A DNA stretch of 62,019 nt, counting the filler, from Circinaria calcarea (lineage: Eukaryota): assembly GCA_051942165.1 (NCBI GenBank). It is 17 parts of 17 records of this genome, joined end to end, with 100 filler letters (N's around TTAATTAATTAA, not from the genome) between each part and the next. Parts side by side here need not be neighbours in the genome. Positions count along the whole stretch, not along the records: positions 10,985 to 14,544 come from JAVECS010002749.1; 16 more parts are not named here. One strand, 5' to 3'. Of the stretch, positions 10,885-46,135 are shown piece after piece. Below the pieces are notes generated by a model, which saw nothing but the letters and a program-made list of their open reading frames with translations, had not been told where the DNA came from and made no database searches. Position 1 is the stretch's first letter. Each line of letters opens with the position of its first letter. The position numbers and the translations under genes were made by a program.

Positions 10885-10984
10885 NNNNNNNNNNNNNNNN
10901 NNNNNNNNNNNNNNNNNNNNNNNNNNNNTTAATTAATTAANNNNNNNNNNNNNNNNNNNNNNNNNNNNNNNNNNNNNNNNNNNN

Positions 10985-11656
10985 GCTCATGCTCAATAGA
11001 TGGTTAATCCGAGGCTAGTGGAAGTCCCAAAAACCAAAAAAAACTACCATACCGAACTTGACATTAAACCGCCAAAAGTGTTGTTTTCCGCTCCATGACC
11101 GATCCCTCCAACGACCCCCTATCCCACCGAATATCCGCCCTCGGCATCCGTCGATCAACCCAGCCATCTATTTCCGTCTTCGACGTCGAAGTCTGCAACG
11201 AAAACTCAGACTGACTCAGGCGAAGACGAAGAGGGAACAGGAATAGGAACGGTGAGGGTAATGGTGCTGGGGTAATGGTGCCGGGGTGATAAGCGCGGCT
11301 GTATTTACGGGTGTGGGTGCGGGTGTGGGTGGAGGAGGAGAAAGAGGAGGAGGATACTATTTAAAAAAGAGCGATTAAGGGCTATATATATACTACATGA
11401 GTCGTTTTTGAGACGATGAAAAGGGCCAGGGAAACGAGAGGAGAAAGAAGAGAGAGGGGAGAGCTTGGAGCAAATTCAAAAACTCTCTTGCTTTCGGGGG
11501 AACACGCCACAGATTTTTCAATTCAAGCCTTGGAAAGAAATTCTCGTGCTGTTGCTATGCTATGGCTACCTTCCTACCTGCTCATGCTCATGCTCATGCT
11601 CATGCTCAATAGATGGTTAATCCGAGGCTAGTGGAAGTCCCAAAAACCAAAAAAAA
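10985..11656. repeat. 59-bp perfect direct repeat (10985-11043 and 11598-11656)
   Basis: GCTCATGCTCAATAGATGGTTAATCCGAGGCTAGTGGAAGTCCCAAAAACC-A8 occurs twice, 613 bp apart. The second copy is preceded by (GCTCAT)n. The first copy starts at the contig edge. Confidence 0.93.
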
Positions 11657-12269
11657 TAACTTCCACGGGATATCCATCCATCCATCCATCCGTAACGTCA
11701 ACATCCGTTAGGAAAAAAGAAAGCGGGCCAATCTGCACATCGCCCCTTTTTAAATCTCTAAGAACCGATTTTCCATTTTTCCGGGGGTTTTTGCCGGGGA
11801 GGATAGGGGCCCGTAAACGCGCCTCTTTTTTTTGGCTTCCTAAGGGACGAATAATAGTTTGGTATAAGTTACTATTACACAAAGTGAACGGAAAAATTGG
11901 TAGTACTTAGAATTGAAAGAGAAAAGGGGTGGGGTTAACGCGCATAGCATGGCGCGTGGCATGTGGCGCGTTGCGCAAAAATCACTCGATTAGAAATTAC
12001 TCGCCAGCCATGCGCGCGCGCGTTAGTGCCACTCTGCTGTACGCTCACACATGCTCACACACGCATTTCTCGCAAAAGCGCCCACACACGCGAAATAAAG
12101 GTGCCAGCCCAGCCCAGTCCAGCCCCGAAAACCGCGGCCCCCCCTTTTCCCCCCTGAGAACTCCATGCGATTACGGCTAGAACCCCATACTCCCGTAACC
12201 CGGCGCTGATGCTGGCTTTATTCCGGGGGGGTTTTTTTGGGTTGCGCCCTGATCGAAGGTTCTCCCTAT

Positions 12270-12374
12270 GTTGAGCGTTGAGCGTTGAGTGTTGAGTGTT
12301 GAGTGTTGAGTGCTGAGCGTTGAGCGTTGAGCGTTGAGCGCTGAGCGTTGAGCGTTGAGTGTTGAGTGTTGAGC
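12270..12374. repeat. 7-bp tandem repeat (GTTGAGY) x15
   Basis: Directly visible. Variants are GTTGAGC, GTTGAGT and GCTGAGC. Confidence 0.95.
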
Positions 12375-12468
12375 ATTAAGGGTGGAAATGTTTCAAAGTG
12401 CATAAAAATGCCGATGGATGGAAAGAGGGAAAGAGGGGGTGAAGGGATTGGGGGAAGTCGACCGACTG

Positions 12469-14085
12469 CCCCACTTTTGCTCGACGTTCAACGGTTGAAG
12501 AATAAACCCTATTGAGGCAAAAAAGGGAACTCGGTAAAGTAAGTGATCTTCCATCTTAATTTCCGTTCCGTGGCCGGGTGGTTTAAAGGATAAATAATCC
12601 GGCACTGAAAAATTTACCCCACTTTTGCTCGACGTTCGACGATGGAATGGAAAAACCTCAAAGTGGTTAAAGGGAGTTCGCTAGAAGCAACCTTCGGTCT
12701 CATTTCCGTTTCATGCTCGGCGGTAGAAGCAATAAAGCTTCCGGAGAGGTAAAGAGCTCGCTAGATTTCAGTGCTTTTTACCCCACTTCTGCTCGACGTT
12801 CGACGATGGAGTGAAAAGACCCTCAAAGGGGTTAAAAGGGCTCGCTAGGAGCAAACCTTCCGTCCTGTCTCCGATACTAGAAGTAGACCTTTCCGGCGAG
12901 GTAGAGCATTTGCATTACCCTTTTTTACCCCACTTTTGCTCGACGTTCGACGATGGTATGAGAAACCTCAAAGGGGTAAGTGGCTGGCAAAGATAGGCAG
13001 GGCCATAAAGGGAATGAGGGTTCGACTGGTCGCTTAGTACATGTAGTCGCTTGGCATGAATAGACAATTTGCCACACCACTCAACGATGAACAATAAAGT
13101 ACAGATGTTCAAAGGTGTAAGTTACTGGGAAGAGAGTGGAAAGGACAAGCAGAAGGGCATGTAAACAGAACAGGTCTATGACCTCATACTAAAGGCAGAG
13201 AAATACAGCCCCACTTCCACTCGACGTTCGACGATACTGTCCAAAACCTCAAACAGGGCAAGTGGCTCGCCAAGTAGTAGTAGTAGCGAACTCCAGTAGC
13301 ATGACCTAATCAGCCACTCAACGTTCGACGGTAAAGTTGAAAAACCCCGAAAAGGAATCGTGCCGTCACGAGAACAAGCCTTTAGGGCTTTGGCCATCTA
13401 GGGATGTTCTTCGACGTTCAACGAAGAGGTTGGAGAACCTCAAAGGGGTATGGCGTGAAACTCCTCCGGAAAAGTGGTGCATTCAATCACACTGGGTGGC
13501 AATGGCGGGGTAACTTCGACGTTCAACGATTGTCCAGGAAAACCCCAAAGCAGCAAGGGCTAATAGGCGAGCGAGAAAGAGAAGCGAGATGTTTGATAAC
13601 ATGTGCTGATAGTCTCACATACTTACCCCTTTCATGTTCGATCATGATCAAGATGTTAGGACCAGGAAATAAAAAAAAACCATGTTGCATGGTTGTAGTC
13701 CTAATTAGCCGCTTGACGCCAGATGCTTGACACCAGACGCCTGAATATGTGACGCTGGGAAACTTTCATAGCAGCCAGTAAATATGGGGTGCATAGCTGT
13801 TCTAGCACGACCCGTGCACATGCGGGGTCTTTCGACATTCAACGATGGTCCATCAGATTCTGTAAAGGGCAACGTCTCATTACATGAGCCGAGGCAGGAA
13901 AACGTTGGTGAAATAAATCTAGGTTCCAGGTATCTCTCATCGGTTAAACCATTGTCCACTGATATCTAACTAAACAAAGATTAGCCGCCGAAGTCGAAAC
14001 ACGCTTGGAAGCTTCAATGCATATTTATAGAAGGCGGGGTGTTTATCGACATTCGACGATGATCCTAAAAAACCCCAAAGCAGAC
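12469..14085. repeat. Degenerate tandem array with conserved bipartite motif TCGACRTTCRACGAT-N(5-8)-AAAACCYCAAAG
   Basis: Core starts at 12481, 12629, 12793, 12940, (13081), 13221, 13318, 13411, 13516, 13832 and 14046, with faint copies near 13727 and 13937. Spacing is 140-164 bp on the left and about 93-107 bp on the right. Confidence 0.88.
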
Positions 14086-14210
14086 AAACCGGCGCCGGTG
14101 GAAGCCGAAGTCAATAGATCTTAGGCTTGAGAGCTTCTTGTGACGACATATGAACAATGCGTACCAAACGTAGTATATATCCATTACTGATCCCCTTCAA
14201 CTGCAACGTA

Positions 14211-14543
14211 CTATGCATTGATCTGTGGAACTTCCTCTTCCTCTATGTTCTCCAAATCCTGTACACCATCCAACCTCTTCACCAATTCTCCTGCAAACAC
14301 ATTTCCCACATCCTCAAGCTCAACCCCTTTCACCCCCTCTTTCTCGAAACTAGTCGTCTTCTTTCCAACAAGTCCACAAGCTACAATTCTGTCAAACCAC
14401 CCTAAGTCTGTACTTATGTTTATTCCCACCCCATGGCTTGTTACATTCCTTCTCAAGTGCACACCCACACTCGCAATCTTGTCGTCCTCTGATGTCCATA
14501 CTCCAGGGTTCTCGGTCGTGAACGACTTTATACCATAATGCAA
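14211..14543 (-). CDS. LIP2: Lipoyl(octanoyl) transferase LipB, C-terminal fragment
   Basis: NPGVW..KIASVGVHLRRNVTSHGVGINI..FDRIVACGL are LipB motifs. Confidence 0.92.
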   Translation of the reverse strand: MHYGIKSFTTENPGVWTSEDDKIASVGVHLRRNVTSHGVGINISTDLGWFDRIVACGLVGKKTTSFEKEGVKGVELEDVGNVFAGELVKRLDGVQDLENIEEEEVPQINA

Positions 14544-14656
14544 ANNNNNNNNNNNNNNNNNNNNNNNNNNNNNNNNNNNNNNNNNNNNTTAATTAATTAA
14601 NNNNNNNNNNNNNNNNNNNNNNNNNNNNNNNNNNNNNNNNNNNNGCGTGGTTGATC

Positions 14657-25384: not shown

Positions 25385-25520
25385 TGCGACAGTGGGCTTC
25401 TGCGACAGTGGGCTTCTGCGACAGTGGGCTTCTGCGACAGTGGGCTTCTGCGACAGTGGGCTTCTGCGACAGTGGGCTTCTGCGACAGTGGGCTTCTGCG
25501 ACAGTGGGCTTCTGCGACAG
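25385..25520. repeat. Perfect 16-bp tandem repeat TGCGACAGTGGGCTTC x8.5, running off the contig end
   Basis: Directly visible. Starts 20 bp after the receptor stop codon. Confidence 0.97.
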
Positions 25521-43895: not shown

Positions 43896-44803
43896 AATGG
43901 AAGTGGTGGAGGAAGTAGTGGAGGAGGTGGAGGCTTAACAGGTCAATTGATGGGCAGCCTCCTGGGAGGCGGTAAGCCGCATAGTCAACAGCAGCAAAGT
44001 CATGCATCCGGAAGTGGTGGAAATTACAGTGGAAGCAGCGGTTCGGCACCGGCCAATCAACATGGAGGCTTGCTGGGTCTCTTGGGCGGCCATCATTCAT
44101 CATCGGTATGAAGAATTCAGCTGCAATCCCATACCTCGTTTTCTTACAAGTCTTCCAGGGTAACAACAACTACGGATACTCATCGAGTGGCCAAGCATCG
44201 TCTACCGGAGGTTATTCCGGCCAGCCACCCCCAGCAGCATACCAGCCACCAGGACAACAACAGAATCAAAGCCAATATGGATCGTCAAGTAACCAATCGA
44301 AACCTTCAAACCTCTCGCAGCATCAGCAATCCTATGCAAGCACCCAAAATTCTGCTACATTAGGTCCATCAAACCCTCCATATACCAGTCCTCCCCAAAG
44401 CCAATACGGTGGCTCGAATCCCGCCGCACCAGGGTTCGGCCAGCAAAGCTCAACCTATCCACAACAGCACCAAGGCCCAGGCTATAGCCAATATCCGCCG
44501 CAGCCGCAACAGCAACAGCAACAATATCCCCATCAAACGCCAAATCCGCTCACATACCCGGTCCCTGGGCAGCCAGCTCCTCAAGAAATGTATGCGCCAC
44601 TCCCATCTCAAAGTAGTCGCCCAAACCAGCAAGAACCATCATACCCAAATCCAGGGACTGGCTACCCGGGCCAACAAATCTATGGACAGCAGGGTGGTCA
44701 AAATTATGGCCGTCCGCCCCCGCCAGCTTCTAGTGGCTATGGCCAAGGCGGAGATCAGTACAATAGCTATGGAGCTCCTCCAGCACCTGGATGGAGAGCA
44801 TAG
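43896..44803 (+). CDS. G/S/Q/Y/P-rich low-complexity protein, C-terminal part
   Basis: Exon 43896-44105 (GGLTGQLMGSLLGGGK..GGLLGLLGGHH), intron 44106-44158, exon 44159-44803. The frame is consistent across the splice. Confidence 0.75.
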
Positions 44804-45553
44804 TGCTCCTTACCCCATTACTTAATGCAAGAGATGGGTGACGCTTGGATACAAAATGAGGGCACAATAGCTATATGACCATGGTATACAGTAATAGATC
44901 AACATGTCTCTCGGTCTGATTTTGCTATGTAAGATTACTAGGACTGTTGCGTTGGGCTTGCCTTAGACTTTTTTCATCTTAGCTCCACAAAAGGATTATT
45001 CCCACCCGATATTATGTAATCCCTTTTTGAACATACGCACCATGGTTAAGATGCGTTGTCTGATGACATGCTGCTGAGCTGCGCGGACTTGGGGGGCTCC
45101 CTGTCTTGCGTGAAATTCAACTCCAGGGTAGTTGCAAGGGCCTGTCTCCGATCGACGACTCATGGTGATGCGCTTAGACCTTTCACTTCGAGAATCTCCT
45201 GTTTGAGATTTTTCGATATCTTCGTTGAACTTCGAGGCGTGCTGTCAGAATTTTTGAGGCGGCTTGATTGTCAAGAGCACCAGGGAGTCTGATAGGCCGC
45301 ACGGACTGTACCCAACAGACCAGGGCTGTCGTCGTGAACCTGACTGGAGCGCTTACGGGAGTATGCGAAGCCTCTAATGTCGGCAAGTGGCCGAGCTCCC
45401 GATAAGGTTTCACTAGCTGTGAACCTTAATGGAGGAGGTACTGTACAAGGGCTCGACTTGTGTGGGTGTCAAAAAAGGTATTTCGATACAACGGCCATGT
45501 GCAAGCTGTCCAATCTCTAAGGCCATGTGCGCGCGGTTGGTGGGGGATTCGGG

Positions 45554-46135
45554 GAGTCCGGAACGTGCCACCCCCCATTTCTGGGGGGGCTGGCATTTTT
45601 CTTGCATAATTCGCATAAAAAATTAAGCGAACGTCAACTACCCCAAAACGAAGCTAGTATAAATTCGATTTTAGCGTGGCTTAGGGCCATCAGTTTATCT
45701 ACCTATTATTTTACATATTAATTTGGGTATCATTTAATTTATTATTTTAAGTATCATTTTGGGTACCTATTTACATATTATTTTAGGCACTATTTTAGGT
45801 ATTATTTTAGGTCTCATTTTGGGTACTATTTTAGGTACCATTTTATATACTAATTCAAATACCCTGAATTATACGCTGCGCCACTGCCAGAAAAGATCTT
45901 GCTAATGCTCTATTCCACCTTCTTTTCTTCATTCCACTTCTTATTTTAAATACAGTGCTTGGGCGGTGTAAAAAGCTAAAGATTAGCTGCGTAAATCGCT
46001 GACTTTAAAATCCTTAGTACCTTTTAGTGTATAGAGCTAATAATTAGCGGATCGTGGGTGGCATTTTTTCGAGATGTCAAAAAATTAAGCGAAAGCCAGC
46101 TACCTCAGAAATGGGGGGTGGCATGTTGTAGACTC
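45554..46135. mobile_element. Non-autonomous Mutator-like element (MULE/MITE), 582 bp
   Basis: 41-bp TIRs with 34/41 identity, starting GAGTC. Perfect 9-bp TSD GGATTCGGG at 45545-45553 and 46136-46144. AT-rich interior with 12-bp repeats. Confidence 0.92.

Follow-up and report, generated by a model that had tools for sequence, protein, structure and literature searches.

Diverged tandem repeats that keep a conserved box are a known form of DNA organisation, and in alpha satellite DNA the CENP-B box is such a conserved short box. The satellites of Meloidogyne carry CENP-B-box-like motifs, which are candidates for promoting rearrangement (PMC3694981). Myb-type proteins bind polar barrier or terminator arrays in S. 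pombe, where Rtf1 recognises four repeated motifs within the RTS1 element of about 450 bp (PMC10473836), and in mammals, where TTF-I binds the Sal boxes downstream of the pre-rRNA unit (PMC5368702). In S. cerevisiae, Reb1, Rap1 and Abf1 form roadblocks at which RNA polymerase II and DNA polymerase delta are stopped (PMC5052057). The locus analysed here, ~1.8 kb of non-coding DNA adjoining the lipoate-pathway gene LIP2, is a further case of a diverged tandem repeat with a conserved box. Like the Meloidogyne satellites, it consists of head-to-tail units of near-nucleosome length with low identity outside short boxes.

A one-directional array at the 3' end of LIP2

The window, by which we mean the whole stretch of DNA analysed (62,019 bases), chains 17 unrelated contigs of ~3.6 kb, so that the true neighbourhood of the array is restricted to 10985-14544. 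The array-bearing contig is delimited by linkers (44 N, TTAATTAATTAA and 44 N) at 10885-10984 and 14545-14644. Its sole recognisable gene is a Pezizomycotina-type LIP2. Positions 14211-14543 of the - strand encode the C-terminal part of an octanoyltransferase (Pfam LplA-B_cat, PF21948, E 9.1e-9) with 274 homologues, and the best relatives, at 85-86% identity, are Pezizomycotina proteins known as proteins only; Atlas matches of LIP2 were obtained at 0.93-0.94. To the left of LIP2, 3.2 kb of the contig contains many microsatellites and no recognisable gene. The features of the locus and of the single copy found outside it are as follows.

10985-14544, no strand: array-bearing contig, 3,560 bases; the flanking window DNA belongs to other contigs
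12247-12392, - strand: unit 0, inverted box with a core of ~15 heptads (TRF, TCRACRNTCRACR matches, GGAGAACCT)
12465-12518, + strand: unit 1 box, core at 12481 with 1 mismatch, poor second box (E 1.8e-10)
12613-12666, + strand: unit 2 box, exact core at 12629, exact AAAACCTCAAAG (E 4.2e-14)
12777-12830, + strand: unit 3 box, exact core at 12793 (E 1e-12)
12924-12977, + strand: unit 4 box, exact core at 12940 (E 4.6e-13)
13065-13118, + strand: unit 5, decayed box, core at 13081 with 5 differences (E 0.11; family D6)
13205-13258, + strand: unit 6 box, exact core at 13221 (E 2.8e-10)
13302-13355, + strand: unit 7 box, core at 13318 with 2 mismatches (E 5.9e-9)
13395-13448, + strand: unit 8 box, core at 13411, contains GGAGAACCT (E 1.4e-10)
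13500-13553, + strand: unit 9 box, core at 13516, GCGGGGT prefix (E 2.6e-10)
13816-13869, + strand: unit 10 box, core at 13832, decayed second box (E 2.3e-9)
14030-14083, + strand: unit 11 box, core at 14046, GCGGGGT prefix (E 5.5e-11)
14211-14544, - strand: 3' part of LIP2 (octanoyltransferase), cut by the contig end (Pfam PF21948, homologues)
45202-45237, - strand: solo two-part box on the contig at 43896-47448 (nhmmer E 1.6e-4, 17.5 bits)

The ten clear core copies reported in the preliminary description are real: TCGACRTTCRACGAT recurs ten times on the + strand at 12481-14060. When up to two mismatches were allowed, 12 matches to TCGACRTTCRACGAT were detected in the 62,019-base window against 0.28 expected, and none of 100 shuffles reached 12; the two matches outside the array (23050, + strand; 45221, - strand) are weak. 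The core-to-core distances given earlier (148, 164, 147, 141, 140, 97, 93, 105, 316 and 214) are exact, the series counting a faint copy at 13081. In the left half of the array the spacing is 140-164 bases, which is close to the nucleosome repeat.

The gene context of the array was also described correctly. Because the LIP2 stop codon lies at 14211-14213 (- strand), the array is situated downstream of LIP2 and its boxes point at the 3' end of the gene. All 11 boxes on the + strand share this orientation, downstream of a - strand transcription unit, and the last of them (unit 11) is 127 bases from the stop codon.

The second part of the motif and both prefixes occur as claimed. At up to one mismatch, AAAACCYCAAAG had 7 matches in the window (0.93 expected), six of which are in the array, each behind a core. 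The left prefix CCCCACTT precedes the cores at 12481, 12629, 12793, 12940 and 13221, the right prefix GCGGGGT those at 13516, 13832 and 14046, and the cores at 13318 and 13411 have neither. The left units have prefix positions in common that are absent from the right units. The resulting module of about 40-55 bases comprises two TCRACR heptads in 7-base phase, which make up the core, followed by 7-11 bases and AAACCYCAAAG, and often has a C4/G4 element upstream; within the array, core and second box lie at distances that differ by single bases. Among the proposed faint copies, three in number, the one at 13081 is supported by the profile (E 0.11 within 231 bases) and by its distance to CAAAGG and then GTAAGT, which is the same as in unit 4. 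The others were not substantiated; the long gaps at 13557-13831 and at 13873-14045 yielded no copies to the profile search.

Differences between the cores were said to be mostly CpG>CpA changes, and G>A at the four CpGs does account for 10 of the 15 differing cells, with C>T in none; the C positions of the core are invariant and these G>A changes fall on its four R positions. The motif was also emphasised as CpG-rich. The CpGs are present, but this is unremarkable in itself because CpG is not depleted in the contig DNA (observed/expected 0.91-0.94). The TpA/ApT ratio of the contig is 0.85 and the (CpA+TpG)/(ApC+GpT) ratio 1.09. RIP or methylation decay was considered and rejected, as no RIP signature was found in the dinucleotide ratios of the contig (CpG, TpA/ApT, CpA+TpG).

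Conserved box, diverged linkers and copies beyond the direct row

The 10 clear copies share 89% identity in the core, and the 38-nt box has an identity of 0.76 compared with 0.36 in shuffles, whereas linker identity (0.46, or 0.44 in the 42 pairs outside units 1-3) stands at the level of shuffles (0.44). The central claim, that the motif persists while the linkers diverge, thus stood, and the linkers are not as conserved as the motif. The homology of linkers 2 and 3 was likewise evident in local alignment against shuffles (z 10.3), but it is not confined to this pair: linkers 1-2 (z 8.6), 1-3 (z 3.2) and, weakly, 4-6 (z 3.3) are also related, the remaining 51 of 55 pairs having z values of -1.9 to 2.9. 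The single strand, the spacings of 93-164 bases or multiples thereof and the homologous linkers of units 1-3 demonstrate head-to-tail tandem descent. Moreover, units 2-4 have in common a 42-nt stretch of 90-93% identity (family D3), yet linkers 3 and 4 cannot be aligned (z -0.5), which rules out uniform neutral decay.

The 7-bp minisatellite adjoining the array at 12270-12374 (TRF: period 7, 15 copies) reads GTTGAGY on the + strand and TCAACRC on the - strand, and it is an inverted unit of the array (unit 0), overlooked in the preliminary description, whose core has expanded to 15 heptads. On the - strand this unit has a C-rich prefix, then the heptads and then GGAGAACCT, which occurs twice in the window, at 12257-12265 (-) in unit 0 and in unit 8. 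The heptad pair TCRACRNTCRACR had 20 matches in the window, all at the array locus, against 0.13 expected, and ten of these are on the - strand in unit 0. The 15 heptads of unit 0 imply that the core is slippage-prone. The variation in the inverted minisatellite is again R in the orientation of the motif, that is, C/T on the physical + strand. The occurrence of R variation in both orientations indicates that the variant pattern tracks the motif and not the DNA strand.

Outside the array, one solo box, likewise overlooked before, was found in the other 57 kb of the window, at 45202-45237. It contains both half-boxes, and its score of 17.5 bits was reached in none of 100 block shuffles of these 57 kb, the best shuffle scoring 11.9. 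In the array, the solo copy and the inverted unit alike, the same short distance separates the second box from the core before it. A possible gene begins ~40 bases after the solo box (ATG 45163, - strand, no Pfam match).

The two-part motif had no matches in the metagenome contigs or in the viral contigs scanned, and its single match in prokaryote genome contigs, which falls within a 469-codon ORF in a bacterial MAG rich in GC, was dropped, as about 0.3 matches are expected by chance according to our estimate. We also inspected metagenome loci anchored on LIP2, of which 80 were kept out of 93 encoding a relative (31-60% identity); the underlying scan used exact 8-residue words, by which relatives at 85-86% identity could be missed. 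Over 81 LIP2-anchored loci the core pattern matched in two (L025 and the bacterial L001, the latter from the genome scan). An array was present in none of the loci, so they carry no information on orthologous flanks. Across 8.4 million papers, the exact core string led to a single one, on synthetic CpG oligonucleotides, which has no bearing on the array.

Possible origins and roles of the box

The preliminary description had named three candidates for the array, and of these a regulatory or boundary array of protein sites fits best. We tentatively favour a tandem duplication in which the box has been kept as a candidate docking module for a sequence-specific DNA-binding protein, although we consider this possible rather than probable. 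According to this proposal, an old head-to-tail duplication in a Pezizomycotina fungus would have produced units of ~95-165 bases, with one inverted unit at the left end; the linkers of the units would then have drifted to randomness while the module of about 40-55 bases was retained, presumably by selection. The module would be a putative docking site for one or two such proteins and may be used elsewhere in the genome too, the array locus being a dense one-directional row of 11-12 sites. Its most plausible role would be that of a boundary, or of a chromatin or polymerase barrier, separating LIP2 from its neighbour. Possible leads to the protein are a likeness of CCCCAC and GCGGGG to the CreA/Mig1 site SYGGRG, of CAAAG to HMG-box sites and of TCG-N5-CGA to AflR-type zinc-cluster sites. 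Use of the box throughout the genome is an extrapolation from the one copy outside the array in 57 kb. The most far-reaching version, in which the box would be a lineage-specific genome-wide cis-element read by a DNA-binding protein and the array a polar barrier that meets read-through transcription or replication forks where LIP2 ends, appears to us a long shot.

A selectively neutral, decaying tandem repeat, in which the box would drive its own turnover by heptad slippage together with short-tract conversion or unequal exchange among the boxes, is rather unlikely in our estimation and nearly as likely as the docking module. The core of unit 0, grown from 2 heptads to 15, is in agreement with such turnover, and so is the pattern of resemblance along the row, where neighbours are most alike (linkers 1-3, boxes 2-4) and decay increases rightwards. 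The prefix positions common to the left units lie outside the core and point to recent homogenisation; recent duplication or gene conversion of this kind is able to mimic selection. ORFs crossing the box in three of the six frames had no true relative in protein searches, and a precedent exists in nematode satellites that are otherwise 32-64% identical, where motifs at the junctions of monomers are conserved and have been proposed to promote rearrangement (PMC3694981). However, conversion within the array fails to explain why the solo copy on another contig retains the half-boxes and their spacing. In addition, the C positions are fixed and the R positions variable in both orientations, and the second box has been retained although it has no internal repeat to drive slippage, all of which argues against a neutral repeat.

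The second earlier candidate, the remnant of a mobile element or its internal or subterminal repeats with the box as a transposase or recombinase site, is improbable. It would account for the three settings in which the box is seen, namely repeated in direct orientation, inverted beside the array and alone on a different contig, and it agrees with the richness of the array contig in microsatellites and with its lack of a recognisable gene over the 3.2 kb left of LIP2. Nevertheless, the 7 non-LIP2 ORFs (5 on the array contig and 2 beside the solo box) contain no domain, transposase-like or other, and on the 3.56-kb contig no pair of terminal inverted repeats frames the array, the 15 inverted pairs of 14-21 nt being scattered. 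The subterminal repeats of En/Spm-type elements are also much more closely spaced than the array units, which are 93-164 bases apart over 1.6 kb.

Slightly more doubtful still is a transcribed non-coding locus (a small-RNA cluster, an independent long non-coding RNA or a tail produced by read-through of LIP2) with the box as a processing or binding signal in the RNA. The array begins 127 bases past the LIP2 stop codon, so read-through RNA would contain the reverse complements of the boxes, and the flanks of the box show slightly greater self-complementarity than shuffles do (longest stem 5.36 on average vs 4.45 ± 0.27). However, non-cognate pairs of flanks are nearly as complementary as the cognate ones (4.78), and a hairpin around the core was dropped for this reason. 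RNAalifold predicted 0 pairs for the + strand and, for the - strand, 3 pairs that are all invariant, the fold z-scores of single units ranged from -3.0 to +2.1 and were mostly near 0, and no tRNA and no Rfam match at E ≤1 were found except one at chance level (16.8 bits). The consensus of C/D-box snoRNAs consists of the C box RTGATGA and the D box CTGA. RTGATGA had 0 matches on both strands of 12400-14150, and a C/D-box snoRNA cluster was discarded on this ground together with the Rfam and folding results. The polycistronic small-RNA locus put forward earlier as the third candidate was thus not supported: Rfam matches did not rise above chance, neither strand gave a consensus structure, and a C box was absent.

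A decayed repeat-protein gene (STF[DN]D), rightly set aside in the preliminary description, is for practical purposes refuted: one open stretch of 86 codons (12736-12993) does hold two boxes in one frame, but each frame of 12400-14150 has 18-32 stops, the cores fall in all three frames (spacings modulo 3 of 1, 2, 0, 0, 2, 1, 0, 0, 1 and 1), the distance from core to second box changes by single bases, Pfam gave no match to any of the 7 non-LIP2 ORFs, and the two-box ORFs gave 3 word candidates on the + strand and 1 on the - strand, none of them scoring. A HMMER search of 1.84 billion representatives returned 3 matches, all perfect-repeat proteins with about 4-6 bits per stretch, which we rejected as summed chance similarity.

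Relation to known systems

If proteins do dock at the box, the array would be a ready, highly multimerised bait for a fungal DNA-binding factor, and it could serve as a test case for the effects of rows of bound factors on nucleosome phasing, transcription termination and fork progression. If the box has been kept by slippage and conversion alone, the locus would be a clean, small example of a tandem repeat that mimics selection. Should the polar barrier be true, it would represent an RTS1 or Sal-box type device outside the rDNA and mating-type loci. The general importance is modest, as a single lineage and a single locus are concerned so far.

The layout of repeats and variable linkers resembles a CRISPR array, an identity that was correctly dismissed earlier: the host is eukaryotic, the repeats are 89% alike, the linkers are unequal (39-262 bases) and partly homologous, and there is no cas gene on the contig. 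The boxes of the Meloidogyne and alpha satellites and the box described here may all bind protein or promote rearrangement. The satellites differ in that they form large heterochromatic blocks, whereas the array is a single stretch of 11-12 units in the 3' flank of a gene, and the sequences of the boxes are, as far as can be told, unrelated. With RTS1 and the Sal boxes the array shares multiple motif copies in one orientation, with unrelated DNA between them, downstream of a transcription unit; this likeness is one of architecture only, and the array locus is neither rDNA nor a mating-type locus. The roadblocks formed by general regulatory factors are comparable in that DNA-bound factors act as physical barriers downstream of genes. 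Those known are single sites, and a row of 11 would be unprecedented among them.

The array and its copies

With up to two mismatches allowed, the core of the two-part box (TCGACRTTCRACGAT) was matched ten times within 12481-14060, always on the + strand, whereas 0.28 matches were expected when both strands of the entire window are counted. This bears out the array claimed in the preliminary description, whose core spacings were exact once the decayed copy at 13081 (unit 5 of 11) was counted. The second box, which follows the core after a short gap (AAAACCYCAAAG, up to one mismatch), was matched seven times in the window, six of them in the array (0.93 expected). The profile of the ten clear copies recovered those copies with E values from 4e-14 to 6e-9, matched 13081 only marginally and gave no match in the two long gaps of the array. 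Thus, of about three faint copies described previously, one (13081, +) is supported and the others are not. In the information profile, only the core of 15 bases and the second box are conserved, along with, less strongly, the prefix upstream of the core. The left-half spacing of 140-164 bases is close to a nucleosome repeat.

Two further details of the units were observed. In units 4 and 5 the second box is immediately followed by GTAAGT (12975-12980 and 13116-13121), a 5' splice-site-like hexamer; since it is absent from the other units, it is probably an inherited trait of that sub-group and not a signal. In addition, the prefix GCGGGGT of the right-hand units (13500-13553, 13816-13869 and 14030-14083) is nearly the prefix ACCCCAC of the left-hand units (12465-12977) in reverse complement, and in the right-hand units it could also base-pair with the second box, at its CCCC. 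This prefix may be a separate site that was flipped, or the likeness may be fortuitous.

Heptad structure and substitutions of the core

The core, previously described as a near-palindrome, consists of two TCRACR heptads in 7-base phase and is not essentially palindromic. The heptad pattern TCRACRNTCRACR was found 20 times in the window (0.13 expected): ten matches are the array cores (+), and the other ten (-) lie inside a 7-bp minisatellite at 12270-12374. Read on the - strand, the minisatellite is preceded by a C-rich prefix and followed, after 4 bases, by GGAGAACCT, whose one other occurrence in the window is at the corresponding place in unit 8. These features identify the minisatellite as an inverted unit (unit 0, 12247-12392, -), which stands head to head with unit 1 and has its core expanded from 2 to about 15 heptads.

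As the preliminary description stated, the core variants are mostly CpG>CpA: of the 15 differing cells, 10 show G>A at one of the four CpG positions, and C>T was seen in none. Unit 0, too, varies at R when read in the motif orientation. The asymmetry therefore tracks the motif and not the DNA strand, which favours position-specific constraint over strand-biased mutation; as the events are few and partly inherited between units, they do no more than hint at such constraint. The DNA shows neither CpG depletion (observed/expected about 0.9) nor a RIP signature.

The contig, LIP2 and the solo box

The window is made up of contigs, each about 3.6 kb long and ordered from larger to smaller, with joints of 44 N, TTAATTAATTAA and 44 N (17 occurrences, 3563-58479). 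The array lies wholly within the contig 10985-14544, so window DNA beyond those bounds is unrelated sequence of the same assembly, and gene neighbourhoods spanning the joints are not real.

14211-14543, - strand: C-terminal part of LIP2 (octanoyltransferase; Pfam LplA-B_cat, E 9.1e-9), at the right contig end
11256-11354, 11579-11608, 11672-11691 and 12104-12125: short tandem repeats left of the array
45237-45202, - strand: solo two-part box on a different contig (profile E 1.6e-4, 17.5 bits), both half-boxes at the usual distance

Among 274 LIP2 homologues the top two were metagenome proteins (85-86% identity), followed by named proteins of Pleosporales and lichen-forming Lecanoromycetes (60-76%), a ranking that makes the host a Pezizomycotina fungus. 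Microsatellites are abundant in the 3.2 kb left of LIP2, where no ORF had a Pfam match (five ORFs of the contig tested). To the left of the array, a 1.3-kb stretch that is gene-poor to an unusual degree for a fungal contig holds no credible ORF and is dense with short tandem repeats (the 14-mer GGGTAATGGTGCCG in 2.3 copies, CGGGTG, GGA, TGCTCA, ATCC and CCAGC). An exact 59-base duplicate (10985-11043 and 11598-11656) begins at the first base of the contig, starts within a (TGCTCA)n microsatellite and stops at a run of A; it has the look of either an overlap in the assembly graph or a local duplication. Elsewhere in the window, a perfect 16-base tandem repeat (25385-25520, 8.5 copies, 100% matches) reaches the last base of its contig and is probably why that contig ends there.

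When the remaining 57 kb were block-shuffled 100 times, no shuffle reached the 17.5 bits of the solo box (best shuffle 11.9). The solo box is oriented towards a Q/P-rich ORF (43985-44803, +), whose stop it follows by about 400 bases, and it lies about 40 bases before a putative ATG at 45163 (-); neither ORF had a Pfam match. The array is oriented in the same way to LIP2, although two cases amount to an anecdote. On the same contig, 470 bases from the solo box, there is a diverged AT-rich tandem repeat of 12/24/36 bases (TATCATTTTAGG-like, about 12 copies, 45704-45845). Neither metagenome nor viral contigs yielded a match to the box motif, and its single match in prokaryote genomes lay inside a bacterial gene, at chance level. 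No array was present at the LIP2-anchored metagenome loci, which were of 31-60% identity only.

Possible origin and role of the boxes

The array arose by tandem duplication. Core identity among the ten clear copies is 89%, and the 38-base segment of core plus second box gave 0.76 matches per base (0.36 when shuffled), whereas the linkers between boxes gave 0.46 (0.44 when shuffled). In local alignments the linkers rose above the shuffle level for units 1-2 (z 8.6), 2-3 (z 10.3), 1-3 (z 3.2) and, weakly, 4-6 (z 3.3), and for no other pair; units 2-4 have a 42-base stretch in common (90-93% identity), yet the linker of unit 3 does not align with that of unit 4. This contrast between box and linker, together with the uneven divergence of the linkers, means that uniform neutral decay cannot account for the present state of the array.

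The contrast, the fixed two-part geometry, the solo and inverted copies and the position-specific tolerance of the core led us to propose, tentatively and as the best reading, that a sequence-specific DNA-binding protein docks at the box, a module which tandem duplication has multiplied at this locus. The observation in the preliminary description was confirmed and extended, and its interpretation is partly upheld. The main rival, only a little less likely, is a neutral repeat in which slippage and short-tract conversion keep the boxes similar, as has been suggested for the junction motifs that are conserved in nematode satellites (PMC3694981). Such a repeat agrees with the expanded heptads and with the near-identical left units, non-core positions included; it agrees less well with the solo copy and with the C positions, which never vary. 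That the array is a mobile-element remnant seems improbable, and a role at the RNA level slightly more so: Rfam gave no match above chance, there were no tRNAs, no consensus fold was found on either strand, the stability of unit folds was not above shuffles, and the array region has no C box. The complementarity of prefix and suffix (5.36 versus 4.45 ± 0.27 in shuffles) was nearly equalled by non-cognate pairs (4.78), and nothing was made of this slight excess. A coding repeat, already set aside in the preliminary description, can be rejected almost with certainty, as the cores occupy all three frames with 18-32 stops per frame, the distance from core to second box shifts by single bases, and ORFs crossing the boxes have neither a Pfam match nor a true homologue. 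The likeness to CRISPR is superficial, as had been noted, given the eukaryotic host, the unequal and partly homologous linkers, and LIP2 as the sole recognisable gene on the contig.

Diverged tandem repeats retaining short boxes are of an already known kind, and the box sequence of this locus appears to be new, with no match in the collections searched. Any function given to this row of sites is an inference. In architecture the array resembles polar barrier arrays such as RTS1, in which the Myb protein Rtf1 binds four repeats within about 450 bp (PMC10473836). Its layout is also like that of the Sal boxes, which sit behind the pre-rRNA unit (PMC5368702), and its architecture is similar to that of the roadblocks formed by general regulatory factors (PMC5052057).
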